Counted from the stretch's first letter, positions 14,567-56,906 are shown. The stretch: 64,000 nucleotides of DNA from a virus (IMGVR_UViG_3300028388_003908:32001-96000); one strand, 5' to 3'. Made by a program: numbers and translations. Notes: a model not told the origin generated them from the letters alone.

Positions 14567-14610
14567 TTATCTCGCTCCTTGTTTAGAGAAGGAGCGAGAT
14601 AAAGGACTTA
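14567..14610 (-). promoter_or_regulatory. Putative late promoter TAAGTCCTTTAT (14599-14610) overlapping a 14-bp hairpin that buries the SD of the baseplate operon
   Basis: Perfect inverted repeat 14567-14580/14589-14602. The AAGGAG SD lies in the 3' arm. Confidence 0.7.
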
Positions 14611-15849
14611 GCGGTCCCAGTTAACGGAGCGAGGCACCTCTAGCTTCTGACGTAGCTTCTCAAGCTCAACCTTGTCGGAGAGCTTGCTGAGATTGTCGAT
14701 ACAATCACCAACAAGACCAGTCTCTACGCCAGCGGTCATCTTCACAAGAACCTTCAAGAGTTCTGCATAGGCAGTCTCAATATATCTCTCCATGAGATTG
14801 GCTAAGCTCTCTGTGGCGATGCTGTTAAAGGCCTTCGCGGTCCCGTCAGGATCTTGTGATCTCACCCTAGACTCATTGAGCATCTTACGAACAACTTCGC
14901 CCGTCACTACTTCGTCAGGTCCGCTCATATCCCTCTTCATATACTCAATCGTCTTCTTGATTGATTCATAACGAGAGCTACCTTTAAGGAACTTCTTGGT
15001 GTAAGGAATGACCAGAGCGAGAGCTAGTAGATCATTACGGGTGCCGATTGAGTACTTAGAGGTGGTGGCGAACACTGAACAAGATCTGGCAGCCGAGACA
15101 AAAGAGCGCGCCCCATCTGCCCCGCGAATACGGAGGGCGCTCTGAGAATGCTTAACGATCTCTCGGGTCGCCTCAGGTGAATCAATGAGAGTTAGGATAG
15201 CTTCTCTCATCTTCTCAGATGGACGCGCTGAAAGGATCGTGTCCCCATCAAAAGCCTCTATCTCCTCAGGAGCTTGCATATCAAGTCCCATGTCTCTCTC
15301 AAGACGATAGCGATTTTTCTGAACACGGATAGCGTCAATCATATCGTTTCTCATGGTGGCTGCCACGAGATTGGCTGCGTCTGTCTTAGCCTTCTCTAGG
15401 GTAGTGATACCTCTCTCCCAAGAAGCGCTGTAGATGACCATATCGAGAACCATCTTAGTGTAAGACTCTTCAAGAGCATCTACACCAAAAGAGTTCACAT
15501 AAGAGTTATAACTCTTCTCTAGAGAAGTCTCTACCGCCTTCTCAATCTGCTTGAGATTGGCGGCAGCCTGCATACGGTTCAGATTCATAGAACCCATCAG
15601 CGTTTGAACCGCGTATCTCTCAGGATTTTTACGAACATCCTCCTTTGAGTATTCCCCGCCAGAACCCGCTACAAATTGTTGTGCAAGCATAGGTCCGATA
15701 GCCTTGAGCGACTGCGCGTCAACGGCCATCTTAACGAGAGCGTAGGCAGCCTTTATTCTCTCTGTTCGGGTACCGAAAGAAGCGAATCTTGAGTCGTTCT
15801 TTAGTAGCGCAACAGCCACTCTATAGTGCTTTAGAAATCTCTTACTCAT
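14608..15849 (-). CDS. Hypothetical protein with a basic R/K-x-A leader and a weak sigma-70 region 2-like segment
   Basis: 413 aa ORF with GGAG SD. LVAATMRNDMIDAIRVQKNR resembles ECF sigma region 2.3-2.4 (weak). Confidence 0.5.
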   Translation of the reverse strand: MSKRFLKHYRVAVALLKNDSRFASFGTRTERIKAAYALVKMAVDAQSLKAIGPMLAQQFVAGSGGEYSKEDVRKNPERYAVQTLMGSMNLNRMQAAANLKQIEKAVETSLEKSYNSYVNSFGVDALEESYTKMVLDMVIYSASWERGITTLEKAKTDAANLVAATMRNDMIDAIRVQKNRYRLERDMGLDMQAPEEIEAFDGDTILSARPSEKMREAILTLIDSPEATREIVKHSQSALRIRGADGARSFVSAARSCSVFATTSKYSIGTRNDLLALALVIPYTKKFLKGSSRYESIKKTIEYMKRDMSGPDEVVTGEVVRKMLNESRVRSQDPDGTAKAFNSIATESLANLMERYIETAYAELLKVLVKMTAGVETGLVGDCIDNLSKLSDKVELEKLRQKLEVPRSVNWDR

Positions 15850-15896
15850 AACGTGTTATCTCCACAGAGGTTGTATGTGTCTACATCAACTCGCAC

Positions 15897-15908
15897 ATAA
15901 AACGATTA
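15897..15908 (-). promoter_or_regulatory. Putative late promoter TAATCGTTTTAT
   Basis: Perfect TAA-N4-TTTAT, about 50 nt upstream of ATG 15849. Confidence 0.6.
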
Positions 15909-15925
15909 TCGAGACGAGAAAGCCC

Positions 15926-15955
15926 TTGACAAGGATCACAAGGTGATGACAATAT
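15926..15955 (+). promoter_or_regulatory. Possible sigma70-type early promoter
   Basis: Perfect TTGACA at 15926-15931, with an imperfect -10 (GACAAT at 16 nt or CAATAT at 18 nt). Upstream of the sigma-like gene at 16057. Confidence 0.4.
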
Positions 15956-16056
15956 ATCCCTGTCAGTAGACGTGATCGCGTCTAGACTAGCAAAGATATG
16001 ACATAGAAGCTCTGCTTCACGTCAACTCAACATATAAACCCTCACAGAGGTGTACC

Positions 16057-16794
16057 ATGACAGACAAAATGCCCCGCAACGCTCATCTTTGGTCAAAGCA
16101 ACTCGCTGATCTTCTCATCAAGGATGAGATGGATGACAATCTCACTCGCTCTTATCTGTTCTCTGTTAAAGACAACACATGGGAGAAGACGTTAAACGCG
16201 CTCAAGCGCTACGGTTGCTCTAAGGGCAATCAAGAAGATGAGATGCACGATTTCGCCACCGAATTCATGCTTGATCTTATCGACAAAGACACCCTGCGCT
16301 CTTATCTTGTCGAGGGCAAAGAGGTCAAAATGAGCGTACTCACCGCTTGGTTCGGTCAATTTATGATCCGTAAATGGCAGTATCTTGGCAAGGACGCTTC
16401 ATGTCGCGCTCTCATGGGCGCTCAATCTCAAGCTGAGCGTAAGAATAAGAAGCTCTATACGCTCACATCCGATCAGGTCGCTGAAATCTCTCTCTCAGGC
16501 GGTGACGAGAGCAAGCGCAACATGAACGTGGATTATTTCCGCCGTGACGAGATGACGATTGAGGACGTGTTGCATCAAGAGACCGTGCGCGATTGTATCC
16601 GTAAGCAGATCAACGACCGATTTGGCGAAAGAGCCGATTTCTATCAATCGCTCTACGAGACAGAGATTGATGGGGCGTTCAAGACCCGTACTGAATGGGC
16701 GCGTACTTGGAAGATTCCTTACCGTGATCTTAACAAGGCGCTTGACGAACTTCACAGCGCTGTCCGTGAGCTAGGGGAAGACGCTATCCTTTAA
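16057..16794 (+). CDS. Sigma-70/ECF-like transcription factor
   Basis: Region 2-like QEDEMHDFATEFMLDLI and a C-terminal HTH-like TRTEWARTWKIPYRDLNKALDEL. Confidence 0.55.
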   Translation: MTDKMPRNAHLWSKQLADLLIKDEMDDNLTRSYLFSVKDNTWEKTLNALKRYGCSKGNQEDEMHDFATEFMLDLIDKDTLRSYLVEGKEVKMSVLTAWFGQFMIRKWQYLGKDASCRALMGAQSQAERKNKKLYTLTSDQVAEISLSGGDESKRNMNVDYFRRDEMTIEDVLHQETVRDCIRKQINDRFGERADFYQSLYETEIDGAFKTRTEWARTWKIPYRDLNKALDELHSAVRELGEDAIL

Positions 16795-17068
16795 GATAAC
16801 GACTCGCTACCCTGCGAGCGCTACGGGAAGGGAAATACTCGCTCTTATCCTTCTTACAATGGGGCGAGTTGGGCTCCTTATATTTGCAGTAGATTGACCA
16901 AGCTACGGGGAAAGCGTACTCAGGACCTTCCCCTCTCTCTTCCTCGATCTGCTCTGCCTTCTCTTGAACATACTTGGGAATGTTCCTCTCAGGCTTGTCG
17001 TCATCTGCGTGTCTTGTGGGCAAGGCGTGGGTCGAATAGCCTCCGTAAATGCTGTCATATCCACTCAT
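16784..17068 (-). CDS. Small ChaB-like protein with C-terminal RRVASRYL tag
   Basis: EYAFPVAWSIY resembles the ChaB A..VAW.A motif. Likely start is ATG 17068 behind a GAGGA SD (the ORF track start is 17089). Confidence 0.55.
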   Translation of the reverse strand: MSGYDSIYGGYSTHALPTRHADDDKPERNIPKYVQEKAEQIEEERGEGPEYAFPVAWSIYCKYKEPNSPHCKKDKSEYFPSRSARRVASRYLKG

Positions 17069-17081
17069 GTCGTATCCTCTC

Positions 17082-17121
17082 GATAACACGTTTATATCAT
17101 CGCTTACATAAACGTGTTATC
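17082..17121. promoter_or_regulatory. Two identical face-to-face putative late promoters (GATAACACGTTTAT) forming a 14-bp inverted repeat
   Basis: 17082-17095 on plus points to the tail tube gene. 17108-17121 on minus points to the ChaB-like gene. Confidence 0.7.
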
Positions 17122-17135
17122 AAGGAGATCAGATT

Positions 17136-17930
17136 ATGGCTAATACAGATACCTATGGCTCAGGTTCCGCCCAAGGGTCGAGCGCTCTTTATAAGTACAA
17201 CACCAGCCCGAACACTAGGGCTGCCATCTCTCAGAAGGTGAGAATCCTATCGCCTGTTTATCAGAGAAATTCCAGCAGTAATGCCCTGAGATACCAACTC
17301 GGTGTGGTGTCGAGCTTTACGTTTGAGTATTCAAGAGACGCAGAGGCGATTCGTGGGGTGGGCTTCGGAGATCAGATCGCAGAGCGCGTCCCTGGTGTCA
17401 CACAGCCTGTTGACGTGGCGATGGAGCGCACCCTGCTCTATCTCTCAAACGCTCACCAAGCGTTTGGTTATGCTGGCGGGGTCGATGGTCCTGTGAGAAG
17501 CCTAGCGCATCACAGATGGCCCTTTGACATGGAGCAACAGCTTGTCTTCTCTCAGATCGCTGACGAGGAGGCTAATATCGGTACGCGCACTTTCAGCGCC
17601 GGTACAGCCGATGTTGATTTCTCTGGTCAGAACGCTCAAGGTGCTGATCTGCGTTATGCAGGGAAGGAGACGCACAAGGCGATCATTACGTTCTTTGAGG
17701 CTTGCTGGATGACTTCTGTGACAGGCGCTAACGTGACCGCAGATGCTTCTCTTATGAACGAGTCAATCACGGCCGCGGTGACCGATATCCATGATCTCTA
17801 CTCGACCTACGGAGAGTTCATGCCTACAGGTAACGATCCTACGCTTGGTCAGTTGGGCTCTATCCGCTATAGCAACCTCAGCACCGCGACCGGGTCAACG
17901 ACCGCGACCGCAAATAGCGGTAACGGGTAA
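17136..17930 (+). CDS. Tail tube protein
   Basis: LGVVSSF…IRGVGFGDQIAERVPG…ERTLLY…PFDMEQ…FFEACWMTS pattern of contractile-tail tube proteins. Precedes the chaperones and tape measure. Confidence 0.8.
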   Translation: MANTDTYGSGSAQGSSALYKYNTSPNTRAAISQKVRILSPVYQRNSSSNALRYQLGVVSSFTFEYSRDAEAIRGVGFGDQIAERVPGVTQPVDVAMERTLLYLSNAHQAFGYAGGVDGPVRSLAHHRWPFDMEQQLVFSQIADEEANIGTRTFSAGTADVDFSGQNAQGADLRYAGKETHKAIITFFEACWMTSVTGANVTADASLMNESITAAVTDIHDLYSTYGEFMPTGNDPTLGQLGSIRYSNLSTATGSTTATANSGNG

Positions 17931-17995
17931 TTGACGCTTGATCTGAGCGTATAATATAGGGCAGCCGTGTTCCCTTAAACTACACAGGAGATTAT

Positions 17996-18601
17996 ATGAA
18001 ACTATCTGATCTAAAGAGCGCCTTCCAACCTCTGTTGGAACTTTCCCATCGGGAAAAAACCATTGATGTTGCAGGGCTATCCTTGACGCTTAGAACCATC
18101 TCCCCCAAAGAAGAGGCTGAGATACAGAACAATCTACCTGTGATCAGCGAAGGGGAAGATGGTACGTCTGCGATGGAGTTCGTGGACGTGTTTCGTAAGG
18201 AAACGCTATCGCGCTCTATAGTTCAAGTAGGCGATCTCGATCTAAGAGGTGTTTCTTATGTCGAGACAGGCGAGGTGAATGATAAAGGGGTCGCGCTCAA
18301 GGTTCGTAAAGAGGAGGCTGTTCTCCAATTTATGGATGATTGGTCGAGAGCGATACTCACCTCAGTGTTTGAGAGCTTTACAGAGCTTGTAGAGGACCTT
18401 GAAGAGGACTTAGCTAAGAAGCTACTTATAGAGCCTAAAGATAAGGATGCCGAAAAAGAGGTCTTGAGAGAGCGACTTAATGATCTAGAGAGACAAGAGG
18501 CGATGACCGCTGTTTCAGATAGATCAAATGAGGTCCTTAAGGAAGTCTCCAACATTAATGGCGGGCTCTTTGAAGAGGCGCTGAGAGATGGGAAGTCCTG
18601 A
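17996..18601 (+). CDS. Tail assembly chaperone
   Basis: Lies between tube and tape measure genes. LRTISPKEE…ETLSRSIVQV pattern. Confidence 0.65.
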   Translation: MKLSDLKSAFQPLLELSHREKTIDVAGLSLTLRTISPKEEAEIQNNLPVISEGEDGTSAMEFVDVFRKETLSRSIVQVGDLDLRGVSYVETGEVNDKGVALKVRKEEAVLQFMDDWSRAILTSVFESFTELVEDLEEDLAKKLLIEPKDKDAEKEVLRERLNDLERQEAMTAVSDRSNEVLKEVSNINGGLFEEALRDGKS

Positions 18602-23845: not shown

Positions 23846-24771
23846 AAGCCACTACAGCGACAGCGCCTTATCTATCCTTACCGACAGGGGAGAGCATACT
23901 GCTCTTTCCCGATAACGGTAATCGAGCTTATCCCGTAGATACGACTCGGGAATCTTTGAGAGAGTACTCCCCTTTTATCTTGTCTGTGAACGCGCCAGAG
24001 ATGAACTTCGGTAATAATGGGGCTAGCTACACGGTGAGGCCCTTTTCCAACCCTCTCAAGAGCACAGACACACGTTATAGCTCTGCGACCCAATTATCGC
24101 AGGATTTCTCGTATGTGGCTGCGATACCCACACGCGCCCCTAGACCTATTCAAGGCTCGGCTAATCCTTCAGTAGTACCAGACTCCAAAAAACCAGGTTT
24201 CTTAAACCGTGATCAGATTGTAGATCACGCGAGACAAGGGACCTATCTACAATCACTGCCCCCTATCGTCTTTATGATTAACCCTACGTCTATCTCTAGA
24301 GAGTATAGTCACATACAGGCGTATCAGGAAATGTCTAGATATGGTTTTATCTTTCAGCGTTGGGGTGAGGAGCTAGTAAAGCTCTCGGTGACTTGTAAGA
24401 TCGGTGCTTTCCTTTCTATGAAGAATCGAGGGCAGGGGGTGCTTGATGGGCCTTCTGGATTGCAATACGCTTCGCGTCTAGATTCGGCAGCCTGGCGTCA
24501 ATTGCAAATACTCATGCTCTCATACAAAAACGCAGGGGCGATACATGATCGCCTAGGGCGCACCCGAGCTTATCATGGTGTCGGATCGCATACCATACAC
24601 TATGACGGACAAGAATGGACGGGTCGTATCACCTCTTTTAGCTACTCAAACTCGGAGGAGAATCCTCACGGAGGCACAGAGGTTTCTTTTGAGATGACCG
24701 TATTTAAGCACGTCATGTACGACAAGCAGTTAAAGACGAACGCGCTGTCTAGAATGAAGAAGGGAGGCTGA
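23842..24771 (+). CDS. Second tail tube initiator-like protein (paralog of 23144-23845)
   Basis: INPTSISREY…FQRWGEE…GRITSFSYS parallels the preceding gene. Confidence 0.65.
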   Translation: MKATTATAPYLSLPTGESILLFPDNGNRAYPVDTTRESLREYSPFILSVNAPEMNFGNNGASYTVRPFSNPLKSTDTRYSSATQLSQDFSYVAAIPTRAPRPIQGSANPSVVPDSKKPGFLNRDQIVDHARQGTYLQSLPPIVFMINPTSISREYSHIQAYQEMSRYGFIFQRWGEELVKLSVTCKIGAFLSMKNRGQGVLDGPSGLQYASRLDSAAWRQLQILMLSYKNAGAIHDRLGRTRAYHGVGSHTIHYDGQEWTGRITSFSYSNSEENPHGGTEVSFEMTVFKHVMYDKQLKTNALSRMKKGG

Positions 24772-24772
24772 G

Positions 24773-27700
24773 ATGAGTCTAGAGAATAGGCCTTATGCTG
24801 GTAACTGGTCGAGCGAGATTCAAGGAAAATATCGTAAGGTCACTTCTTGGACACCGGACGCCATTGTCAAGATCAACGGTGAAGCCTCTTTAATGGGCTG
24901 TCGAGATTGTAATAACCGCATAGATTTTCAGTCATTTATTACCTCATGTAACGTCAACGCCAGCTTAGATTCTCTGAGCGCAGACATAAGCATGAGCATA
25001 CCTAAGCACTATGGGGATTCGATTTTCAAGGACGGCACGTTTCTGATGGAGACGGGCATGGAAGTGCATATCTTCTATCGGGGATTTTTCCCGACAAAAG
25101 GTCTCATGGAAAAAGGAGATGTTGAAAGAGACGAGACGTTAGATGTGGAATACAACCTAGAAGAGGTCGAATATCGCCCCTATTATCCTGTTTTTCATGG
25201 GGTCGTGACGAGCTTAAATTATTCCTTCTCGGGAGGATTCTATAGCGCGTCTCTCTCATGTGCAGGGTTGCTACATTTTTGGGAATCTCAACAGGTCAAC
25301 ACCAACGCAGCCTATATGGCAGCCGGTCCCTCAGAGGATAGAGGCTCTGTCAGGATTAGCGGTCACGTTTATACTAGCATGACCCCTCACCAGATCATTT
25401 ATGATCTCTATCGACACACAGGCGGGGCAGCCGAAGGTCTATCTTGGGCTTGGTCTAGTAAATCAAACGTGAAAGCTAAATCCGCTACAGGTCAAGACTT
25501 CTATTCGCTCTCTATGCGCTATTGGGAAAAGCGCTTCTCAGAGGGTATGTATGATCTCCGTATGTACGGTGTATCAGGTCGTCTTTATAGCGCTACAGAG
25601 CAGGCTTTCCTTACGAATCTCTACGCAGGATCTTCTCTCGCTAAAGAGCTGAACAGCGTTGTTCAATCTACGCTTAATCCAGGGACGAACAAGCGAGCGT
25701 CTAGGAGATTTCAGCGCGCTCAGGCTGCCGGTTTTGGACCTAAAACAAAGACCTCAAAGGTGGTCGATTCACAGCTCTTGGATATTCGCTATCTAGCGCA
25801 GACCGCGTCTAAGGATAAAGTCGGTCTTGTCGCTACACAGCTTCAAGCGTTTATTCCCGATCTCAACAACATCGGGAATATCAATCTGTTTGAATCCTCC
25901 TATGAGTCCAAAAAAAGCATCGCCTCTAAGGTTGCAGAGACTATTGGATATGAGTTCTACCAAGACCTAGATGGGGACCTAGTTTTCAAGCCCCCTATGT
26001 ATAACATGGACACCTCTAAGAGTAGGGTCTATAGGATTCATAGAGAAGACATAATCGACATAAGCTATTCTCAAGACGAGCCGGCTGCCACATACGTTAT
26101 CTGTAAAGGAAGCCATTTTAGGAATCTAGGCGGTACGGGCATGGAAGGTGAGTTCGGTACCCGAGGCACTTATGTGGATTATCGTCTTGTCGCCAAGTAT
26201 GGTTGGAAGGCTTACGAGTTCGACACGACCTTTTATAACAGCGCTGAGAGCGCGTATTACGCGGCCGTTGTGAAGCTCGACACCATGAACAAGGACGTTA
26301 ATAAGGCGAGCGTCACGATCCCTCTACGTCCCGAGATCAAGATGGGATATCCTGTCTACATAGAACACATCGACTGCTTCTATTATGTCTCAAGCGTCTC
26401 TCACTCATTCGCTTTTGGTTCTTCATGCACCACGACCTTAGAGTTGACAGCGCGCAGACGTAAGTTTTTGCCTCCGGGTAATCCTTCGGTTGGTTACGAC
26501 CGAGACCCTAGCTTAGCTGTGGATTTCGAACGCACGTTCATGCCCCCTAAGAAACTCTATCAGAGAGACGCAGATGGTCGCCCTCGCGTAATCGGCTTCC
26601 CTAACGTAGTGATGGCGCTCGATCCTACCAAGATGGACCCCTCGTATCTCTACTTTCCTACCGAGTATTACCTTGGCGGTAACGAGAATGAAGAGACGAG
26701 AAGGATGTTTCAGAACATGATCATCCTTGAAGGATATCGTCTAGGGGTGCTCAAGCTACAGACTCCGATTGATTCTGAAGGAGAATCCCAAGATGTACCT
26801 TTATCCACGAACTTTAGCTACGACATAGACGATAAGTTTTTTAAAGGACCTTGGGTTATGTCTAGACCTATCGCTGGAGTAGATTCAGATGGTAATCCTA
26901 CACAAAGCTCCGAGAACGTATTGGTAGCTCTTGAAAGTGATGGCAGATTTTCAGGGGAGTCCGAGCTACAAGCAGCCAATCAGGACCTCAAGAAAGGTCG
27001 TAAACAAGCGGATCGTCTCAATTCTAAGGGCAAATTTATGGCCTCTCAGAACAAGAGAGAACAGGTGGCTAAAGCCTATGAAGAAGCGATAAAAAAGCTC
27101 AAAGAATCTCCTTCAGATAGTGGCAAGTCTCTTAACATTGTCCAGATTATTGACATTTACCGACAATACGCATCTGAGGGTTCTTCAGGTATTACAGCAC
27201 CTGGTTCTCTGTCCTCTCTCATACGTCTGTTGAGCAATAAAAAAGCGAGCTTTAATCCTAATCAACCTGGTTATTATCGCTATTATTCCTCTGCCCATCC
27301 TAATCCGAGATACCAAGCACCGCCTTTCGTAAAGGTCGGTTCTGACGGGAGCATCACGCTTGATGATCCGGCGTTTGCGATCACTAGGGACCCCGGTGCA
27401 GATAAGACCACAAACGTGGTCTCATCTGTCACAGATAATGAGGTGCTTATTGAACAAGGCTCTGCCATAAAAGGGTTCAACACCAAAGTTCTCACGTCTC
27501 AAGATTATGAGATTGTACCGAGCGAGCGAATCACAACGCTCAGCTTCACGAAGAACGAGGTTTCTAAGACAAGACGTGTTAGACCTACAATCTACGCCAA
27601 AACCCTCACGTTGAGCACTTTTCAGCAGGAATTTAGATCTGGTTTAGCGCGCTACATGAGCGCTAAATATACCGATGGCATGACCGTTGGGAAAATGTGC

Positions 27701-34574: not shown

Positions 34575-35570
34575 TCAGTAAAGATCGTCCTCAAAATCAT
34601 AATCAGGATCGAAACCGAAAGTCTCCTCCTCTAGCTCCTCCAATGGGCTTGAATCAAAGATCCGATCCTCAAAATCATCCTCATCCTCATCCTCTTCCTC
34701 AAAAATATCTTCAAGAGGATCAATGCCCATGTCTGCGTCATACTCCATCTCATAAGGATAGTCTGGCTCGTACTCCTCATAAAATGTCTCGTCATGCAGT
34801 TTGCGCTCGCTGTCGGTCATAAACAGAGGCTCATCATCCTCTAGATCGAATTCTGCAACATCTGCATCGCCTAGATCATCCACGATAAGATCTGAGAGGT
34901 CGCCTTGAAATCTCTCGTCCTCAGGAAGATCAGCCTCAAGCTCCTCGAGGTCGAAGATAGGACCGTAATAAGCGCGTCTGCTTGAGCGCGCCTTCTTGCT
35001 CGCCTTGTCTAAGATCTCCTCTTGCTCCTCCTCAAGAGCTTTCACCTTAGCCTCAAGCTCTTCTAGCTCGTCCTCGTTCTCCTCGTAATCCTCTGACTGC
35101 ATCGCCTTAGCGCGATTCTTCACCACGTCCTTGTTGATCTCGGTTTGACGGTCGAACTCCTCGGCAGCTTCAGGATGTTCTTCCTTCCACTTCTTGAACT
35201 CTTCCTGACCTTTAGGTCCTGAATGAAAGCGAGCATAGCGAGGAATCATCATAGAGAAGATGCCGAGATCGTCAACGTAACCTTGACCGCCTTCGTATGA
35301 ACCCTCGCCCTCGTAATCGTCATCAAGATCAAGATAATCAACATAATCTTGAGCGTTGCCGGGACCGACAAGATCGAGACCTTGATCATATCCCGAGTTA
35401 ACCTGCACGGTGCTGTCTGCCAAGAAATCAACAGCCTCTCTTGAGCCGTAGTCTCTTCTCATTTGTAGAGGTTGGGTCAGAGCGATCTTCTTGCTGGCGA
35501 CCTTAGACGCGAGATCACCCCTTTGATCCTTCTTAAATTCGTTTGCGATCTTACTAAAAATATCAGACAT
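34575..35570 (-). CDS. Extremely acidic protein with several R/K-x-A motifs, candidate internal head/scaffold protein
   Basis: D/E-dominated composition. SKVASKKIA, PRYA and KKARSSRRA segments. Late-type promoter upstream. Confidence 0.55.
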   Translation of the reverse strand: MSDIFSKIANEFKKDQRGDLASKVASKKIALTQPLQMRRDYGSREAVDFLADSTVQVNSGYDQGLDLVGPGNAQDYVDYLDLDDDYEGEGSYEGGQGYVDDLGIFSMMIPRYARFHSGPKGQEEFKKWKEEHPEAAEEFDRQTEINKDVVKNRAKAMQSEDYEENEDELEELEAKVKALEEEQEEILDKASKKARSSRRAYYGPIFDLEELEADLPEDERFQGDLSDLIVDDLGDADVAEFDLEDDEPLFMTDSERKLHDETFYEEYEPDYPYEMEYDADMGIDPLEDIFEEEDEDEDDFEDRIFDSSPLEELEEETFGFDPDYDFEDDLY

Positions 35571-35615: not shown

Positions 35616-35628
35616 ATAAAGCGTTTAT
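35616..35628. promoter_or_regulatory. Overlapping bidirectional putative late promoter (ATAAAGCGTTTAT)
   Basis: Reads TAA-AGCG-TTTAT on plus (35617-35628) and TAA-ACGC-TTTAT on minus (35616-35627). Lies between divergent genes. Confidence 0.65.
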
Positions 35629-35637: not shown

Positions 35638-36618
35638 ATGAAAATGATTAAGAGAGGAGATCTTATGCGTAGAATCGCTAAAGCGGATGTTAATCCGATA
35701 CGTCAAGGTTCTCAGTTTTCATGTGTGAGCGCGTCTACCTGTATGGCGTTAAATGCTGTAGGTGTTCAGTGCTCTGAGGAAGACGTAAACAAGGTGATTG
35801 GCGCAAAGCCCATGCAGGGTGCGCGTTGGGAAGAGGTGCTAGCCTGCGCTCAATACTTTGGTTGTAGAGCAACCTTGACCACCCCTGCGACCTTGACTCA
35901 AGTTAAAGCGTGGACAGATCAAGGGAAGCCTGTACTGATCGCTTGGAATCCGGAAGGACGCGATTGGTCACACGCGAGCTTGATCTTTGACGTGACCGGA
36001 GAGAAAGGGGATTATGTGGTTCACGTTGCCGACCCTAATATCCCCAACCCCGATAAGACGACCCGAGAGGTCTCGGAAGACGAATTCTACTCTAAATGGT
36101 TTGAGAAGTGGCCTAACTATCTAGTGCGTAGACCTGCGCTTATGATCGAGCGCGAGATTGACCCTCAAGGCAGACAGATCATGGCGAGCCTTGATAGGGA
36201 ATCTAGGGTCAAGAGTCATAAGCACAACACCAAAAAGGAAGTTAAGGATTCTTACGAGGAGCAAAAGAAGAACTTTGGAAAAGAATGGGCAAAGTATGAA
36301 GGGGCTATGACACCTGAAGGACTTAATCAAGATCGCATTAATAAGAACTTAGGTAAAAAGCCTTCAGGTGGAGGTTTATCTCCTCTCGATAGTCTCGGTA
36401 AAGGTAAAAGCAAGCCTTCAGGAGGAGGTTTGTCCCCTCTTGATAGTCTCGGTAAAGGTAAAAGCAAGCCTTCGGGTGGGGGTTTGTCCCCTCTTGATAG
36501 ACTCGCTTCAGATGACGAGATATTTGATGATCTAGAAATCTACGCAGACGAGCACATGGCGGACCACAGAATCGCGTCATTAAAGCGCTACGCAATCCGG
36601 AAGATGATGGGTCGCTAA
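35638..36618 (+). CDS. C39-like papain-fold cysteine peptidase with low-complexity tail
   Basis: Catalytic residues in RQGSQFSC (Q…C), SHASLI (H) and VADP (D). Likely start is ATG 35665 (MRRIAKA) behind GAGGAG. Confidence 0.8.
   Translation: MKMIKRGDLMRRIAKADVNPIRQGSQFSCVSASTCMALNAVGVQCSEEDVNKVIGAKPMQGARWEEVLACAQYFGCRATLTTPATLTQVKAWTDQGKPVLIAWNPEGRDWSHASLIFDVTGEKGDYVVHVADPNIPNPDKTTREVSEDEFYSKWFEKWPNYLVRRPALMIEREIDPQGRQIMASLDRESRVKSHKHNTKKEVKDSYEEQKKNFGKEWAKYEGAMTPEGLNQDRINKNLGKKPSGGGLSPLDSLGKGKSKPSGGGLSPLDSLGKGKSKPSGGGLSPLDRLASDDEIFDDLEIYADEHMADHRIASLKRYAIRKMMGR
36358..36500 (+). repeat. 54-bp coding tandem repeat, about 2.7 copies (KPSGGGLSPLDSLGKGKS)
   Basis: Units start at 36358, 36412 and 36466 and differ at synonymous positions. 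Confidence 0.95.
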
Positions 36619-36922: not shown

Positions 36923-36966
36923 TAACCTCTTTATCGTTAACGCTTATTATTATCTTAAAGAGAGGT
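36923..36966 (+). promoter_or_regulatory. Putative late promoter TAACCTCTTTAT in an imperfect hairpin pairing with the downstream SD
   Basis: Perfect motif at 36923-36934. ACCTCTTTA can pair with TAAAGAGAGGT (with a bulge) just before ATG 36971. Confidence 0.6.
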
Positions 36967-36970: not shown

Positions 36971-37477
36971 ATGTCGAGATACGCAAAAGAAAAATATCCT
37001 TGGGACGAGTGCATTAAGGATCAGCTAGAGCAATATGGAGATCAAGAGGTTGCGGAGAAGGTCTGCGGTAAGATCAAAGCACAATCCCAATCTAAGCCCG
37101 CTTCAAGGATTGCCTCTCGCTATCTTCAATCGTCCCGTATGAAGAGTCTTATGATGGAGATAGACGATTCTGACGAGGCTTGGGACTATCTGCATGATAG
37201 TCCAATAGATCGTAGAACTAAAGCGCTTACTTTTATCCGTGCTCTCAGAAGTAGCGTAAATCTGAACAGAGAGCAGGAGACAGCGGTTGCAATTGCCCTA
37301 GATGCGCTCACATACGTCTCTGGCGGTGCAGAGCCTTCAGACATCATCCCCGACAAAGCCCGTAAGATGATACGTCATCTCGCGTATAGAAATGAGCGCA
37401 AGTTGATGACGAGACTGCCTGCCTTACCTGCTGGCATTGTCTATAAAGACGAGATCCGCAGATTGTTCGGTTCATAA
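36971..37477 (+). CDS. Hypothetical protein with internal SRIASRYL tag
   Basis: Small YPWDECI…AEKVCGKIK domain followed by the tag at 37103-37126. Confidence 0.7.
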   Translation: MSRYAKEKYPWDECIKDQLEQYGDQEVAEKVCGKIKAQSQSKPASRIASRYLQSSRMKSLMMEIDDSDEAWDYLHDSPIDRRTKALTFIRALRSSVNLNREQETAVAIALDALTYVSGGAEPSDIIPDKARKMIRHLAYRNERKLMTRLPALPAGIVYKDEIRRLFGS

Positions 37478-39329: not shown

Positions 39330-40274
39330 TCAACCTAAATACTTAGAGGCTACTCTGACCGGATTTGATCGGATCTCTTGCATCTCAAAATTACCGTTCT
39401 CGTCTCCGTGACCGTAGCGATAAATCTCAAAAGAGCATACCGCAGGTCCGGAAAATCTCTTCTCAAAACCCGCATAACCACAGCAATCTGGAAACAGATA
39501 AAGATACATCTTACGCTCTATCGGATCAAACACCGTGTGAGAGCTTGTGTAAAGATTAGACCTGCGCGAGACGTTGAAAGGATCATCAGGATTTCTGAGA
39601 CGGTCGCCATAGATACTAGGGGCTAAGTCTTGCACCTTTTGAATCTGTCTTATGCGCTTCTGCGCTCTGCGCTTTCTCTCATGGGAAGAATCTCGATTGA
39701 CACCATACTGATAGCCTGTATCAGGATTCCAAACACCATGGTTTGTGCGAACGTGGGTCTTGTCCGATCTCAGCTTTCTAACGTGAAGATCGCCTTCTTC
39801 CCCCTCTAGTACGCCTTTCAAGGTGCGCTCGATCCCATACGTCTCATAACCATCTGAGAGCAGATTATGCCCCAACACACCCTTGTTAGTGGAAGCCTTC
39901 CTGACCGCTTCATCTAAGGTAGTGCTCGATAGTATCTCAAGCATCAAGTTACCGTCCTTATAGCTATCTCTAGCTAGGATTCGGGACAAATTCTCCATGC
40001 CCTCATCATCGGGGTCGTATTCATCCTTCTTCTTTGAGGGGCGGTCCTTCTCGTCATCTAAGACCATCAGAGCGCTGTTGACGAGAGAGATACCGTACTC
40101 GTTAATACCCTCAATCCAACCCGTATCAACATCCTGAAAATATAGGATCTCAACCCCGTTGACGCGGTCGTGATACACCTTAATGTCGGGGTCATAATTG
40201 CGATCTCTGTTCTTAAACAGGACCACCTTGCCCTCACATGGTGTCGCAGAGATTGTGCAAGCCTTTTTGTCCAT
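39330..40274 (-). CDS. Ntn-hydrolase (C45/NRDE-like) with MDKKA leader and C-terminal VRVASKYL tag
   Basis: CT…KNRDR, EGINEYGISLVNSAL and RTNH motifs. Confidence 0.8.
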   Translation of the reverse strand: MDKKACTISATPCEGKVVLFKNRDRNYDPDIKVYHDRVNGVEILYFQDVDTGWIEGINEYGISLVNSALMVLDDEKDRPSKKKDEYDPDDEGMENLSRILARDSYKDGNLMLEILSSTTLDEAVRKASTNKGVLGHNLLSDGYETYGIERTLKGVLEGEEGDLHVRKLRSDKTHVRTNHGVWNPDTGYQYGVNRDSSHERKRRAQKRIRQIQKVQDLAPSIYGDRLRNPDDPFNVSRRSNLYTSSHTVFDPIERKMYLYLFPDCCGYAGFEKRFSGPAVCSFEIYRYGHGDENGNFEMQEIRSNPVRVASKYLG

Positions 40275-45225: not shown

Positions 45226-45267
45226 CCTCTATCTACTCTTTAACCGTGCTAGAGGATAAAAGGATTA
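45224..45267 (-). promoter_or_regulatory. Putative late promoter TAATCCTTTTAT (45256-45267) with an 8-bp SD-burying hairpin
   Basis: Inverted repeat 45224-45231/45250-45257 contains GAGGA. Confidence 0.65.
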
Positions 45268-49954: not shown

Positions 49955-49956
49955 TT

Positions 49957-51276
49957 TTATGACCTCTTTCTTTGACGTAGAAGATAAAGATTCGTCTCAT
50001 GTGCGTTAGCAATAGACATAATAAAATCATCAAGTCCTAGAGACATACCGCCATTATCTTTTATCATATCGTAGACGCGCTTTAAGATGGGCTGTATGCG
50101 CTCCTCTGCGATAAGAGCGCGTGTAATAGGATCGGTAGCGTCATTGTGGATCAAGACCTGAATCGACTGCTGAGCTTGAGGCACCGGCGCAACCGCTACA
50201 GGACCGTATTCCCCTACAATCTTCTCCGCTAAGGTGTCGATCTCGTCCTCTAAGGACTCATAGAGACGCTCCATCAGCTGATGATCCCCATAAGAGGATA
50301 GTCCTTTAACCTGCCAATGTGAGGTCCAATGGGACCAATGCACAGCGCGCAGTACAGCCAAGAGCGTCTGCATGATCTCTAGCTTCACGTCAGCGGAGGC
50401 ATATCGGATTTTATTAGAGGAAGCCTTCTTAGAACGAACCTTAAAGAACTCCTTAGACCCGTTGTGTGAGAGATTTCCTTGTCGATCAATATCGTAGTAA
50501 CCCATGTCATTTACCCCTATATCAAGCGCCTTGCGCGAGCGTCTGTTCTTCTGTCTTACGGTAGAGACACCACCGCCCTCGTATCTTTTAAATCTGTTCA
50601 AGTGCTTACGCCTCTTTTGATTGTAGCGCTTGATCCTTGAGCGATTTTTCAGATAGTAGCGTCTTCTCTTTGTCTTGAGTTTGGTCTTGTTCTTAAGACG
50701 GTTTTTAATGCGCCATTTTTTGTACTCTCTGCGAGCCTGACCCTTCTGCTTACGCTGTCTTTTTGAAGGGATTTTTACCGAGATAAACGCGCTCTTAAAG
50801 AGATCTCCGTTCTCGTCTACGTCATAGATAAAATCCTCGTCTTCAAGATAAGGATCTAATACCTCACCCATGAGCGCGTCTAAAGCTACTCTGCGCTTCA
50901 ATCCTGTAGAGGTAGACTGATCTATATAAGGATGACCATACTGATCTCCGGGTAAACCACTAGAGCGAGGTCGCTGATGTAGAGGCTTACCGTCAGGCTG
51001 ATTTGGTATCGCGTTAGGATTGGGAGCTTTGGAGTAAGACGTAGAAGCACCCGATGAATCCGAAGGTGTATTCGATACAGGAGGTCCCGCCCTCTGCTCT
51101 GTCCTGCCTTCTGGATGACCTGAAGGTAGGGGCAATACCCGATCTCTTTTAGGCTGACCGTCTGCGTAATCCTCTCTACTTGGAGAAGGCGCCGGCGTGT
51201 TCTCTCTAGAATCATTTACCCATGTACGAACGCCACTAAGCTCTTGAACAGGTTGACTATGACCCATAGTGTTCAC
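49957..51276 (-). CDS. Multidomain protein: disordered N-terminus, very basic K/R tract, C-terminal Dps/ferritin-like domain
   Basis: HWQVKG…DH.LMERLY…EIDTLAE matches the Dps ferroxidase-centre pattern. Confidence 0.8.
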   Translation of the reverse strand: MNTMGHSQPVQELSGVRTWVNDSRENTPAPSPSREDYADGQPKRDRVLPLPSGHPEGRTEQRAGPPVSNTPSDSSGASTSYSKAPNPNAIPNQPDGKPLHQRPRSSGLPGDQYGHPYIDQSTSTGLKRRVALDALMGEVLDPYLEDEDFIYDVDENGDLFKSAFISVKIPSKRQRKQKGQARREYKKWRIKNRLKNKTKLKTKRRRYYLKNRSRIKRYNQKRRKHLNRFKRYEGGGVSTVRQKNRRSRKALDIGVNDMGYYDIDRQGNLSHNGSKEFFKVRSKKASSNKIRYASADVKLEIMQTLLAVLRAVHWSHWTSHWQVKGLSSYGDHQLMERLYESLEDEIDTLAEKIVGEYGPVAVAPVPQAQQSIQVLIHNDATDPITRALIAEERIQPILKRVYDMIKDNGGMSLGLDDFIMSIANAHETNLYLLRQRKRS

Positions 51277-51638
51277 CTGCCTTTGAGATAGGCGAGCGCT
51301 ACCTTCTTGACGGGATCTTGATTGTACTTAGAGGCGATATCCACCTTCTCTCGATCCGTGTGAGGCAAGCGTTGACGATAAAAACCTTCACCCATCTTGA
51401 TGAGCGCATAATTGGTCATATCTAGAGAGCGCTCTAGTCTATCTAAAGACTGAGGAATACCGCTAAGCGCGTCCCCAAACTTCTGATAGATTTCCTCTTT
51501 CAGATCCTCATCGCAATCTTCCAAGGTCTCTCGGATTTGATTGCAAAAGGATCTGATAATATGCGCCTGTACTCTAGAGGAGGAAGCCCCCTCTGCGAGC
51601 ACAGACCAACTAGCTTGACTTGAGGATCTTTTTCTCAT
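51273..51638 (-). CDS. Hypothetical helical protein with C-terminal KKVALAYL tag
   Basis: ORF with AGGAG SD and late-type promoter. Confidence 0.7.
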   Translation of the reverse strand: MRKRSSSQASWSVLAEGASSSRVQAHIIRSFCNQIRETLEDCDEDLKEEIYQKFGDALSGIPQSLDRLERSLDMTNYALIKMGEGFYRQRLPHTDREKVDIASKYNQDPVKKVALAYLKGR

Positions 51639-51641: not shown

Positions 51642-51682
51642 CGCTCTCCTTCTTTATGTAGAGAGCGTTCATAAATGAGTTA
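51642..51682 (-). promoter_or_regulatory. Putative late promoter TAACTCATTTAT (51671-51682) followed by an SD-burying hairpin
   Basis: Inverted repeat 51642-51648/51661-51667 plus a G-U pair. Confidence 0.65.
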
Positions 51683-52610: not shown

Positions 52611-52736
52611 GTTGTGTTCCTCCTAGGTTATCTGCATCACGCGCTCTATAATACAGAGTTCGATATGCAGGTTCTTGGATTTTTGTTAATGCTTATATCC
52701 GACGTATAAGTAAATCAATGAGGCTAAGGGGTAAAC

Positions 52737-53192: not shown

Positions 53193-53238
53193 TATAAGAT
53201 AGTTTGTCTTTTAACACCCTCACACGAAAGGTAAAAAC

Positions 53239-54840: not shown

Positions 54841-54967
54841 AAAGGACTTACTGCGTGAAGCCCATTGAAGTGATTAAATATCTCAATCATCAAACCAAGA
54901 AATGTGCTTCATGCGGTAAGCGTATTGACAAGCGCATCGTCTGCCCCTGCATCAAAAGGAAGACAGC

Positions 54968-55543
54968 ATGAAAGATCTCTATCTTGAATGTAATGACCGG
55001 GGTATGACGGAGCTTGAGTTTCAATCTTCCTTTTGCAACTACTGCCGACAGACGCGCTGTAGTAGAGCAGGATGGTCTAAAACCTCTTGGGAACAGCGCA
55101 TAAATACGCAGGTAGATCGCCTGCTCATCAACCCTAATATCCATCTACAGAGCGAATCGGAGAGATGGGCTGAGATACCGAACTTTGAGCTACCTCAAGA
55201 GGTCTTAGAGATATGGGGCTCAAAGAAGGTGAGCGCTGACCTTGCTGAGATACTAGAGAACGTTCCTGAGACAGAATCTCCATTAGAGATTGAGGGAGCG
55301 AGCGCAGAAGAACCTGCGAGCCCAAGGAATGACACATCGGAGAGCGTCACAGAAGGCTCTTTAGACGCTACAAGCCCTCAGATACTTGTCCCCGACAATA
55401 AGCCCTCAAAAAGAGCAAATACGAAAGCTCAAGAGATTATGATAGGAGAGGCGCCCGATACACCAAGCGCTCCTGCGGTAGATCCTTGGGCTCCTCAACC
55501 CGCTTCGATCAAGGTGGGCGGTACTTTTAAGATGGGCGGTTGA
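54968..55543 (+). CDS. Hypothetical protein with Cys-rich N-terminus
   Basis: C…FCNYCRQTRC motif and AAGGA SD. Confidence 0.7.
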   Translation: MKDLYLECNDRGMTELEFQSSFCNYCRQTRCSRAGWSKTSWEQRINTQVDRLLINPNIHLQSESERWAEIPNFELPQEVLEIWGSKKVSADLAEILENVPETESPLEIEGASAEEPASPRNDTSESVTEGSLDATSPQILVPDNKPSKRANTKAQEIMIGEAPDTPSAPAVDPWAPQPASIKVGGTFKMGG

Positions 55544-55577
55544 TAAGTAGAACGTCTCTTGATAATAGGATTATCGT

Positions 55578-55823
55578 ATGGTCATCTTACCCCATGAGCG
55601 CTTGTTTCAAATACATCTGACCTACACAAAACCTACAGACCGTGTACCGATTGCAGTAGGTCTTGGTCGTAGAGCTTATGTGCAGGGCTCGGAGAACTCA
55701 CCTAACACCGACATAAAGTTTCAGCGTTGGGTTGAGAAGATCGAGAACTCAAGCATACGAGAGAACCTAGAGAGCGCTTGGCTCAGAGGTTGGGCACTAG
55801 AAGCTCAAAGAAGGTCTGTATAA
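55578..55823 (+). CDS. Hypothetical protein
   Basis: ORF with AGGA SD. Confidence 0.6.
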   Translation: MVILPHERLFQIHLTYTKPTDRVPIAVGLGRRAYVQGSENSPNTDIKFQRWVEKIENSSIRENLESAWLRGWALEAQRRSV

Positions 55824-55854
55824 TCCAACAAACCTTCAACGATAAGGCTGACAC

Positions 55855-56427
55855 ATGAGCAACGTATTTGGCGGGAAAAATGAGCGGGCGGTATATATAC
55901 CCATGTCCGAGACCGAGCTTGAGGTTATAGCGCGTCTGGTTGATTCAGACGACCTCAAGGTCGTGTTGCACGGTTGGGGAGTGATCGAATCTCCAAAGAT
56001 CACATACGGAGACAAGAACTTGCACATCCCTATCAAGATGACCTTCAACAAGCCTGTAGAGGCTCCTCAAGACGTTTACTATTTCGACATGGAGCTAAAG
56101 ACAGGATCAGGCATCTCTCTCTTTAAGAAGCGCATGAGCACCTCGTATGGAGGACAACCTTTAAAGGTGATGGCAGGTCTAGAGCTAGAGATGGTTTGGG
56201 ATATCTCTATACGTCACCTAGACCCAAACCTAGTGCGCGCAGTAAAGCCCGGTGCTAGAGGTCTGACCTCTAAGCTACAAGACAAGCTGACGCTCGATTT
56301 TACCGATACCGGAAACATGAGGTTAGACCGGAATCAAGCAGATCAAGCTCGACAAATCCGTGCGATGGAGAAACTGATCAACAAGATGGATCAGGGCAAG
56401 CTCGCAAAGAACAATCAGAAGACGTAA
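55855..56427 (+). CDS. Hypothetical protein
   Basis: 190 aa ORF with TATAAT upstream. Confidence 0.7.
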   Translation: MSNVFGGKNERAVYIPMSETELEVIARLVDSDDLKVVLHGWGVIESPKITYGDKNLHIPIKMTFNKPVEAPQDVYYFDMELKTGSGISLFKKRMSTSYGGQPLKVMAGLELEMVWDISIRHLDPNLVRAVKPGARGLTSKLQDKLTLDFTDTGNMRLDRNQADQARQIRAMEKLINKMDQGKLAKNNQKT

Positions 56428-56906
56428 ACGCGGTAACCGGGGATGCCCGACATACGCGAGATCTCTCTTGAGATGGTCAAGCCTTTCTTGATCTTCGCAA
56501 CATCTACGATAAGCTCATCATGCTCTTGACGAGTCTCATCGAGATTACTTGAAGTCACCTCAAGCTGATAAGTATCGCCCCTGCGCTCAGCCTGCTTTAG
56601 ATCGCGCTCTAATCTAGAGATTATAGAGGCGTAATCTTTCTGCCTCTGCTCAAGATTCTTGATAATCTCCTTGTTCAGATTGGTCCGAGACCTCGTGATC
56701 AGATCACCCTCATCTTTGATCCAAATGGTCTCTCCAGTGTGGTATGTCCCGAGCAAACGGAAAGCGATAGCCTCTACAATCGAGGCAGGGTCACGATACT
56801 TTGCGGTATCGAAAATGGTAGGCTTACCTGCGCTACGCTCAAGGCGCGCTACGCGCATCTCTAGGTCTTTTAGATTGAACATCATCAAATCCTTCACTTG
56901 TGTCAT
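56415..56906 (-). CDS. Coiled-coil protein with N-terminal LEMRVARLERSA leader
   Basis: Leader resembles the R-V-A tag family found elsewhere in the window. Confidence 0.65.
   Translation of the reverse strand: MTQVKDLMMFNLKDLEMRVARLERSAGKPTIFDTAKYRDPASIVEAIAFRLLGTYHTGETIWIKDEGDLITRSRTNLNKEIIKNLEQRQKDYASIISRLERDLKQAERRGDTYQLEVTSSNLDETRQEHDELIVDVAKIKKGLTISREISRMSGIPGYRVYVF

Follow-up and report, generated by a model that had tools for sequence, protein, structure and literature searches.

In encapsulins, which are not viruses, a short peptide at one terminus, carried by a flexible linker, sends unrelated enzymes inside an HK97-fold shell, and the binding of this peptide, with a consensus such as LxxGxGxLK, to the shell has been solved structurally. 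Terminal helices also dock assembly proteins inside the procapsid, as in the P22 scaffold helix-turn-helix, the C-terminal segment of the HK97 protease and the herpesvirus scaffold tail, which lies downstream of a maturation site cut between Ala and Ser. Ala-Ser sites are likewise a feature of assemblin. According to Mullaney and Black 1996, as cited in PMC10052503, the capsid targeting sequence (CTS) of T4 is carried by IPI-III and Alt and is removed by the prohead protease gp21. This peptide of about 10 residues, common to unrelated proteins that include the ADP-ribosyltransferase Alt, is strictly N-terminal, ends in the gp21 site L/I-x-E, and is clipped off after loading into the prohead core. 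In phiKZ and SPN3US, giant phages with many internal or ejected head proteins, the N-terminal propeptides of head and ejection proteins are cut by gp175 and gp245, respectively, at (A/G/S)-x-E (PMC10052503, PMC5694885); these removable segments are mostly 20-254 residues long and family-specific. Iyer et al. 2017 (PMC5512222) describe polyvalent proteins as travelling into the host along with the DNA. They and the MuF-fused effectors combine shuffled modules (ART, peptidases, hydrolases) in very large polypeptides, whose packaging is ascribed to covalent MuF or portal-associated fusion.

In this study, we analysed a 64,000-nucleotide stretch, the window, of a 143-kb phage contig with 160 ORFs. 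The original prediction had placed a short peptide, here designated tag A (strict pattern [RK][VI]A.[RKA]YL), on four non-homologous ORFs, three times at the extreme C-terminus. All four copies were recovered where predicted, three of them 1-3 residues before the stop, and two further strict copies and a looser one were found elsewhere in the genome. The tagged genes are as follows.

16784-17089, minus strand: 101-aa protein with C-terminal tag A (..SARRVASRYLKG, then stop); residues 93-99 of 101, core 16793-16813, matrix score 31.6
36971-37477, plus strand: 168-aa protein with internal tag A; residues 46-52 of 168, core 37106-37126, matrix score 30.4
39330-40274, minus strand: 314-aa Ntn-hydrolase-like enzyme (AAT / peptidase C45 type) with C-terminal tag A (..NPVRVASKYLG, then stop); residues 307-313, core 39336-39356
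51273-51638, minus strand: 121-aa protein with C-terminal tag A (..DPVKKVALAYLKGR, then stop); residues 112-118 of 121, core 51285-51305, matrix score 25.5
112418-112645 (genome coordinates), minus strand: strict tag A at residue 13 of 75
127838-129976 (genome coordinates), minus strand: strict tag A at residue 10 of 712; residues 522 and 639 mark two weaker copies
139005-139679 (genome coordinates), minus strand: looser C-terminal copy

The pattern was set only after copies had been seen, which leaves room for chance, a compositional artefact or a translated DNA repeat. Six strict copies were observed against 0.027 expected, and none of 2000 within-protein shuffles reached six. A scoring matrix at a threshold of at least 12 bits gave 8 matches against 0.2 expected. 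In a six-frame search every match lay in a called gene frame, with none in the other five. Codon usage differed from one copy to the next, which argues against a DNA repeat and for selection on the peptide. Tag A was also enriched independently in the near-complete relatives G003 (6 copies against 0.7 expected) and G004 (12 against 0.3), in 80 other loci and in the published huge phage LR745208.1. Shuffles, codons, frames and relatives together refute such an origin, the probability of which is practically nil. The six strictly tagged proteins gave no mutual BLAST match at 1e-5; as with the CTS of T4, the same short peptide stands on otherwise unrelated proteins.

A large clade of uncultured jumbo phages related to Bacillus phage G places tag A on unrelated proteins. 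We examined where the tag stands in them. Under the loose pattern, 15 of 29 matches were no more than 20 residues away from a terminus, where 5.7 would be expected. Among 120 orthologues of a 224-aa family, the tag was N-terminal only in 58, C-terminal only in 31 and at both ends in 3 (odds ratio 0.05, p = 2.6e-9). Of 120 homologues in the Ntn-hydrolase family, 18 had it at the C-terminus, at the N-terminus or between domains. The Ala and Tyr were invariant across proteins merely 30-60% identical. Orthology of the tag was patchy, many orthologues of tagged proteins being without it, and tagged genes were dispersed across the genomes, both of which count against loading into the head. Conservation in relatives, the switching of ends among orthologues, and the junction copies and lone helix described below strongly support a tag that is portable among unrelated late proteins. 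Whereas the T4 sequence is strictly N-terminal, tag A is found at either end or at the joints between modules.

The joints bear on a second explanation, in which tag A would be part of a processing code, with no addressing, and the head protease or a polyvalent-type zincin peptidase would cut modular precursors. Tag A lies at module junctions in G003 172626-174179, in G004 72288-74183 and in an 804-aa protein (genome 119818-122232), which has a HELVH (HExxH) motif but no Pfam match. Gene borders also slide around the tag at the 207/712 and 121/439 pairs. The neighbour of the tagged 121-aa protein illustrates this.

49957-51276, minus strand: 439-aa protein with a Dps/ferritin-like C-terminal domain (DUF5856, phrog_858) and no tag of its own

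Its gene begins directly behind tag A and the stop codon of 51273-51638, and in G003 172626-174179 an internal tag A (..SMARRVAYLYLQGA) and then its N-terminal module form one polypeptide. In 36971-37477, tag A separates a small Cys-containing N-terminal module from a second one. G003 and G004 homologues of 16784-17089 keep the domain and continue with other sequence beyond a [RK]-K-A-[ST] site. In addition, [RK]-x-A-[ST] shows a 1.7-1.9 fold enrichment across the whole genome, and the sites R25-x-A27-S28 and K280-x-A282, one on each side of the protease domain, are invariant. However, many tags lie 1-5 residues from the stop or 5-12 from the start, and a cut there would shorten the protein hardly at all. 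The residue after the Ala is variable (S, N, H, L, E, Q, D, K), so that tag A itself is no fixed cut site, and the 224-aa family has a separate [RK]-[TK]-A-[SG] site between tag and core in N-type and C-type orthologues alike ([RK]-T-A-[SG] being one form). Finally, the conserved positions form one helix face and not an extended substrate. A pure processing code is therefore unlikely.

The core of tag A is [RK]-[VI]-A-x-x-Y-[LM], often with a Pro-containing helix cap (N/D/S-P-x-x) just ahead. The conserved V/I, A, Y and L/M, at i, i+1, i+4 and i+5, fall on that single face. In an AlphaFold2 model the core is helical, residues 170-206 form a disordered linker, and tag A stands as a lone helix at 210-220 (pLDDT about 80). 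In the model and in the alignment, tag A thus appears as a terminal peptide on a flexible linker, like the encapsulin peptide; its sequence is unrelated to that consensus, and shell binding, solved structurally for encapsulins, is putative for tag A. Short basic amphipathic helices at extreme termini behind a flexible linker can also target membranes, as do the C-terminal helices of MinD and FtsA, and membrane-targeting helices work from either end. Tag A could in this way recruit late proteins to the inner membrane, perhaps where proheads start or where lysis takes place. Its conservation is far stricter than membrane binding requires (invariant Ala and Tyr), its hydrophobic residues number just four, Ala among them, and no payload has a membrane-related appearance, which makes this a very improbable role.

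Next, we considered the promoter-like motif TAA-N4-TTTAT (TAANNNNTTTAT). The window has 9 occurrences, where 1.65 would be expected.

17108-17119, minus strand: TAACACGTTTAT, 19 nt upstream of tagged 16784-17089
36923-36934, plus strand: TAACCTCTTTAT, 37 nt upstream of tagged 36971-37477
45256-45267, minus strand: TAATCCTTTTAT, at the head of a series of minus-strand genes (45225 to 38792) that includes tagged 39330-40274
51671-51682, minus strand: TAACTCATTTAT, 33 nt upstream of tagged 51273-51638
14599-14610, minus strand: motif preceding the baseplate-wedge operon (13543-14565 with the genes downstream of it; phrog_975, phrog_43, phrog_6)

The site at 17108-17119 is mirrored by an identical plus-strand site at 17084-17095, ahead of the operon starting at 17136. 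The strict tag genes of the window had been said to lie behind this motif. This holds directly for 16784, 36971 and 51273, at 19-37 nt, and for 39330 through the head of its operon. Three of the 6 tag genes stood directly behind the motif compared with 8 of 148 untagged ORFs (p = 0.005), in agreement with the predicted enrichment. The copy that precedes the baseplate-wedge operon links the motif to virion genes, and the motif also heads the head operon, which runs 207 aa, 712 aa (with the three tag A copies), protease, scaffold and capsid protein. Copies of tag A lie within the head modules of relatives and of LR745208.1; homologues of 51273-51638 in the relatives' head modules end in ..SARRIASKYMSKK or ..KKVAHKYLNSKR before the stop.

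The capsid protein resembles tag A at its N-terminus. The signature [RK][VI]...Y[LMI] occurred in the first 30 residues of 3 of the 160 proteins (0.36 expected), namely two tagged proteins and the capsid protein, whose helix K-I-I-A-D-Y-I lacks the invariant Ala of the tag; this likeness was spotted post hoc. Phage G and Tunturi_5 have a capsid protein without the signature and head modules without tag A. No protein of the clade is better conserved than the capsid protein (93% identity), as expected of a common receptor for a near-invariant tag. The C-termini of the scaffold (invariant ..APDVSK[FY]F[GSN], then stop) and of the protease (..LVRLAKLLSL..) are loosely tag-like as well.

Another possible partner is a non-capsid hub, such as host ClpX or ClpA with phage ClpP, a chaperone or the transcription machinery, for which tag A would be a docking motif or terminal degron that times the activity or turnover of late proteins. 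Basic amphipathic helices belong to a class able to act as terminal degrons, and ClpX recognition tags are reported (Flynn et al. 2003) to be typically terminal, position-independent, short basic-hydrophobic signals. One ClpP homologue was found in each of G003 and G004 (E = 1e-26). However, neither the relatives nor this fragment yielded a ClpX-type AAA_2 domain, and the internal junction copies are unlike a degron. Copies also stand in head-module proteins between portal and protease behind the virion-type promoter, and the tag A signature co-occurs with the clade-specific N-terminal signature of the capsid protein. This explanation is likewise unlikely.

One of the variants in the original prediction belongs to a different leader, two tags having been merged.

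56415-56906, minus strand: 163-aa protein with a partial tag B leader (..KDLEMRVARLERSA..), not tag A

Tag B is a separate N-terminal leader of 24 residues with a two-heptad coiled-coil pattern; in G004, the homologue of the first module of 36971-37477 begins with it instead. Both tags share the start R-R-[VT]-A-S-x-hydrophobic-hydrophobic, and none of the best 150 tag B proteins carried tag A. Together with the coiled-coil pattern and the three tag A copies on the 712-aa head protein, these points would fit helices of tags A and B that bind each other and bundle proteins into an inner-body-like core or condensate, with no dedicated receptor. Tag A, of about two turns, is nevertheless too short for a stable self-bundle, so that bundling as the whole explanation is improbable; it overlaps head loading and does not exclude it.

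Two further proteins of the window had been listed with looser versions of the tag.

34575-35570, minus strand: 331-aa acidic protein with a weak tag-like LASKVASKKIA, matrix score 10.2
35638-36618, plus strand: C39-like peptidase with a degenerate tag-like C-terminus (..HRIASLKRYAIRKMMGR, then stop); PF13529, E = 1.3e-4

Most such versions did not hold up: those at 40276, 49957, 14608, 43329 and 52737 found no statistical support, and 34575 alone kept a weak score. The N-terminus of 34575-35570 is a copy of capsid-protein residues about 10-43 (SKIANEF.. then TQPLQMRRDY), and its homologues in G003 and G004 have more tag-like N-termini. The G003 orthologue of 35638-36618 ends in a canonical tag A (..SQKIADLYLRQLHR, then stop). 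For 35638-36618 itself, translation probably begins at residue 10, with MRRIAK... The peptidase half makes up about 55% of the protein; it is 86% identical to G003/G004 and ranks second in identity among 92 own ORFs with homologues in both.

As to the proposed cargo, the Ntn hydrolase was supported by PF03417 on many homologues, one of which (P0176) is fused to ART-PolyVal. The C39 peptidase match fell just short of the Pfam cut-off (23.0 against 24 bits), and DUF3140 gave a weak match. The Dps-like domain was supported as well, in a protein that is itself untagged. Neither Pfam nor PHROGs gave a DUF4258, ChaB-like or sigma-like domain in the scanned ORFs; for 43329 the scan covered PHROGs only, with no match, and the scanned set did not extend to 52737. 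For most payloads no known function was recognised, which also counts against head loading. One G004 protein combines an N-terminal tag A with ART-PolyVal (PF18760, E = 1.9e-12), recalling Alt in the T4 cargo, and this domain and the HExxH motif on tagged proteins recall the polyvalent effectors. In contrast to those very large polypeptides, the tagged proteins of the window are small, of one or two modules, and many separate proteins here each bear their own short tag.

The best reading of this circumstantial evidence (late-type promoter, head-module copies, effector-type cargo, likeness to the capsid N-terminal helix, and candidate release sites [RK]-x-A-[SG] between tag and core) is that tag A may be an address label that loads proteins into the virus head, with a probability of about 0.5. 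The tag would be a portable docking peptide, functional from either protein end, in the form of an amphipathic helix of two to three turns carried by a flexible linker. Tagged proteins would share their TTTAT-type promoters with head and baseplate genes. The helix would bind one common, highly conserved prohead partner, the scaffold core or the capsid inner face being candidates, perhaps by imitating the capsid protein's own N-terminal helix. Through this binding, tagged enzymes and effector modules would become enclosed in the head, and might be injected into the host. The head-maturation protease would then probably cut at a nearby [RK]-x-A-[SG], parting cargo from tag. These conserved sites recall those of assemblin. 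They are separate from tag A, whose own sequence differs from the T4 CTS and has no Glu-type site; at the relevant place its consensus has no Glu of the (A/G/S)-x-E motif either. Tag A also differs from the family-specific propeptides of phiKZ and SPN3US in being one short common tag, and from the P22, HK97 and herpesvirus segments, which belong to core assembly proteins, in being portable on putative cargo. It is possible, though doubtful, that tags A and B together form a clade-wide capsid cargo-loading code that imitates a capsid propeptide helix from either end and serves a fast-changing effector arsenal of over a thousand protein families, released by the protease between the Ala and the [SG] of [RK]-x-A-[SG].

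We found no paper on tag A in the literature. Should it bind something other than the head, it would still be an unusually clear network of a conserved short linear motif in a virus, without a described partner. If it does load the head, capsid addressing would have arisen repeatedly, each time with its own code, and the code found here would be free of the N-terminal restriction seen in T4. Some 10 residues, placed at either end, would then suffice as a simple handle by which to package foreign proteins in HK97-type shells. The cargo set could be read straight from sequence by means of the tag. With over 2000 relatives of the capsid gene in public data, very abundant environmental giant phages would then carry a large, quickly shuffled set of enzymes into the host together with their DNA.

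A helical peptide with the pattern [RK]-[VI]-A-x-x-Y-[LM], referred to here as tag A, was found on unrelated late proteins of a single virus contig of 143,151 bp, of which the window is bases 32001-96000. A greedy ORF call covered 94% of this contig and gave 160 proteins. The strict form of the tag, [RK][VI]A.[RKA]YL, was present in six of them, compared with a mean of 0.027 in within-protein shuffles, and none of 2000 shuffles gave six strict matches. The strictly tagged genes are as follows.

Window 16784-17089 (-), tagged protein
Window 36971-37477 (+), tagged protein
Window 39330-40274 (-), tagged Ntn hydrolase
Window 51273-51638 (-), tagged protein
Genome 112418-112645 (-), tagged 75-aa protein
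Genome 127838-129976 (-), tagged 712-aa protein

The four window copies lie where the original prediction had placed them, three of the four at 1-3 residues from the stop codon. The two remaining strict copies lie outside the window, as does a looser one at the C-terminus of a 224-aa protein (genome 139005-139679(-)). With a scoring matrix derived from every copy, 8 hits reached at least 12 bits, where 0.2 were expected. When the whole contig was translated in six frames, each of the six strict matches fell in the frame of a called gene. Chance is excluded by the shuffles together with the six-frame check, and its probability is virtually negligible. No BLAST similarity was detected among the six strictly tagged proteins. 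The codons differed between the copies, which indicates that the conserved unit is the peptide and excludes a DNA-level repeat. A Tat signal was also rejected, as tag A has no hydrophobic region. The original prediction had further listed looser versions in eight genes. From that list, 34575 was retained with a weak matrix score, and 35638 gained support because its orthologue in a near-complete relative, G003, ends in a canonical C-terminal tag A; 56415 carries a different leader, and the rest were unsupported.

The contig is 46% complete (CheckV). The window contains baseplate and tail genes, a helicase, and numerous ORFs without a family. The head module lies outside it and comprises, in order, the large terminase, the portal, small proteins, a 207-aa protein, the 712-aa protein, a head-maturation protease (phrog_18299), a 451-aa scaffold-like protein, a 210-aa protein, and a 292-aa HK97-type major capsid protein. 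The capsid protein showed 86% identity to that of LR745208.1 (a published uncultured phage of 485 kb), 46% to that of Tunturiibacter phage Tunturi_5, and 38% to gp27 of Bacillus phage G. Its relatives numbered more than 2000 in public protein data and 573 IMG/VR loci, some on contigs of 170-375 kb. Nothing in the phage collection matched a 7.9-kb part of the window by blastn.

We also related the tag to the promoter-like motif TAANNNNTTTAT, of which the window has 9 copies where 1.65 would be expected. The contig has 13, and in 11 cases a start codon follows within 50 nt. Copies of the motif stand ahead of three operons (baseplate-wedge, the one at 17136, and the head operon, with the 207-aa gene first) and of three of the six tagged genes. 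One more tagged gene belongs to an operon headed by the motif, and another, the 712-aa gene, is inside the head operon. Tagged genes stood directly behind TAA-N4-TTTAT in 3 of 6 cases, compared with 8 of 148 untagged ORFs (p = 0.005). In G003 and a second relative, G004, only a shorter TTTAT element was enriched ahead of tagged genes. Separately, two divergent gene pairs, at window 17084-17119 and 35616-35628, carry mirrored or overlapping copies of TAA-N4-TTTAT: TAACACGTTTAT stands on both strands, 13 nt apart, and TAAACGCTTTAT and TAAAGCGTTTAT overlap.

The relatives G003 (290 kb, 93% complete) and G004 (376 kb, 100% complete) were taken in full. Tag A was enriched in both (6 against 0.7 expected in G003; 12 against 0.3 in G004), and it was also present in the head modules of many among 80 IMG/VR loci and of LR745208.1. 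Phage G and Tunturi_5 had none in their head modules. Among 120 listed of 661 relatives of the 224-aa protein, the tag was confined to the first 30 residues in 58 and to the last 22 in 31; double tagging, seen in 3, was rare (odds ratio 0.05, p = 2.6e-9). Shuffled termini gave about 2 N-terminal and 1 C-terminal tags. The alignment showed a conserved core of 145 residues, with the tag attached on either side via variable, partly acidic linkers. In an AlphaFold2 model of the 224-aa protein, the core was helical, residues 170-206 were disordered, and the tag formed a separate helix at 210-220 (pLDDT about 80). A fold search with this model gave generic helical hairpins only, with no match at E <= 0.001. 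Read from the pattern, V/I, A, Y, and L/M (i, i+1, i+4, i+5) would form one helix face, with Arg/Lys on the opposite face. Such a helix might instead bundle with other tags, which we regard as quite unlikely, or target a membrane, which is very unlikely.

The tag was similarly mobile elsewhere. Of 120 homologues in the Ntn-hydrolase family of window gene 39330-40274, 18 carried it at the C-terminus, at the N-terminus, or between domains. Larger proteins carry the tag where modules join, and gene borders shift around it. In G003 an internal tag precedes the module that is N-terminal in window gene 49957-51276; here that module comes after the tag and the stop codon of 51273-51638. The 207-aa head protein homologues of G003 and G004 end with tag A; here the 207-aa ORF is cut short, and the tag stands at the start of the 712-aa ORF, which overlaps it downstream in a different frame (genome 129976). 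This border could be a real shift or an assembly frameshift. The 224-aa family, the Ntn-hydrolase family, and the module junctions and gene borders show that tag A is an autonomous unit.

Most tagged proteins have no family, and those that could be assigned are "effector"-type enzymes. Neither Pfam nor PHROGs returned a hit for any of the four strictly tagged window proteins, nor for the 712-aa, 224-aa, and 75-aa proteins. Many homologues of the Ntn hydrolase matched PF03417; one of them (P0176) is fused to ART-PolyVal and others to ChaC/GGCT or PAP2 domains. In the Ntn hydrolase itself (39330-40274(-), residues 1-6), an invariant Cys6 follows M-D-K-K-A. Some homologues have an N-terminal tag-like segment ahead of ..KKA-C, and self-processing at the nucleophile would then remove the tag too. 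G004 encodes an N-terminally tagged protein matching ART-PolyVal (E = 1.9e-12), as well as one that bears HAD_SAK_1. Effector domains like these are described by Iyer et al. (PMC5512222) as belonging to polyvalent proteins delivered together with phage DNA, with T4 Alt cited as a precedent. The effector-type proteins also include a C39-like peptidase (35638-36618(+)). Between its peptidase domain and tag-like C-terminus, at residues about 238-295, are three tandem units of ~20 residues (..KPSGGGLSPLDSLGKGKS..). An 804-aa protein (genome 119818-122232(-)) has a zincin-type HELVH motif and an internal degenerate tag A. This protein and G004 72288-74183(-) are polyvalent-like and modular; a Cys-rich N-terminal module ends in tag A or in the degenerate ..GERLTDRYL.., and their modules recur in G003 and G004 in altered order. 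An exact-word scan of viral contigs confirmed no relative of the 712-aa protein, probably due to the limit of exact words, since BLAST finds homologues in G003 and G004. An Atlas look-up with its C-terminal half gave no usable lead, and it showed no similarity to the 'DNA ejection protein' of Tunturi_5.

A second, separate leader of 24 N-terminal residues, tag B, has the consensus M-R-R-[ST]-A-S-E-[VI]-[IL]-x-x-L-E-x-R-[VI]-A-R-L-E-[RK]-x-[AS]. Four proteins here open with it, and two more copies are partial or C-terminal.

Window 56415-56906 (-), tag B
Genome 1729-2187 (+), tag B
Genome 4273-4674 (+), tag B
Genome 24520-24810 (+), tag B
Genome 115572-115973 (-), tag B, C-terminal copy
Genome 130666-131028 (-), tag B

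There were 14 tag B proteins in G003 and about 28 in G004. A profile search of 1.84 billion representatives gave 1082 protein clusters. In the best 150 of these 1082, tag B almost always started at residue 1, [RK]-x-[AS] followed it in 130, and tag A co-occurred in none. The only Pfam hit among 64 tag B payloads was one WGR domain. Tags A and B share the start R-R-[VT]-A-S-x-hydrophobic-hydrophobic, and in homologues one may stand where the other does.

The motif [RK]-x-A-[ST], which resembles a cut site, was enriched 1.7-1.9 fold in this contig, G003, and G004. It lies between tag and core in 224-aa proteins, in N-type and C-type alike. The catalytic domain of the head protease (genome 126477-127883(-)) and its homologues in related loci is flanked by invariant R25-[VI]-A27-S28 and K280-x-A282-[SG], which are candidate self-cleavage sites. 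PDB and Pfam sequence searches with the protease gave no hit, and its AlphaFold2 model had a mean pLDDT of 49.5, with an unreliable catalytic domain. It is doubtful that tag A is purely a processing signal. The idea that the tag itself is a fixed Ala|Ser cut site was rejected because the residue after Ala is variable.

We also looked for a docking partner. No protein of the clade is more conserved than the capsid protein, which is 93% identical to its counterparts in G003 and G004 (compared with 83-85% for the portal and 57-61% for the protease). Its residues 12-18 (genome 123420-124298(-)), K-I-I-A-D-Y-I, match 4 of 5 defined tag A positions and are followed by T-P-x-G-R-A-K-L-A-A-S. This is the layout of N-type cargo: helix, linker, [RK]..A site, and core. 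The G-R-x-x-L-A after residues 12-18 is invariant. [RK][VI]...Y[LMI] occurred in the first 30 residues of 3 of 160 proteins, the capsid protein and two tagged ones (0.36 expected). The capsid proteins of phage G and Tunturi_5, both without tag A in their head modules, keep G-R-x-x-L-A and lack the Y-I signature. A copy of capsid residues about 10-43, with TQPLQMRRDY among them, is present in the acidic window protein 34575-35570(-). Loosely tag-like ends are also seen on the scaffold (invariant ..APDVSK[FY]F[GSN]*) and on the protease (..LVRLAKLLSL..). These features may point to the partner of tag A; they are leads, not proof.

Tag A could also be a degron or another hub motif. A ClpP homologue (E about 1e-26) is encoded in G003 163600-164085(+) and G004 81099-81539(+), but no ClpX-type AAA_2 domain was found in these genomes, and neither was found in the present 46%-complete contig. 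We consider this reading unlikely. No paper came up in a search of full-text literature for the tag motif. Among known systems, the nearest is the capsid targeting sequence of T4 (PMC10052503), whose N-terminal rule and Glu-type cut site do not hold for tag A. Tag A would therefore be a variant of T4's kind rather than a member of the T4 family. Our preferred reading, with a probability of about 0.5, is that late proteins would dock via tag A onto a common partner in the prohead, that this docking would enclose the tagged proteins in the head, and that the head protease would later clip them at [RK]-x-A-[SG] sites near the tag.
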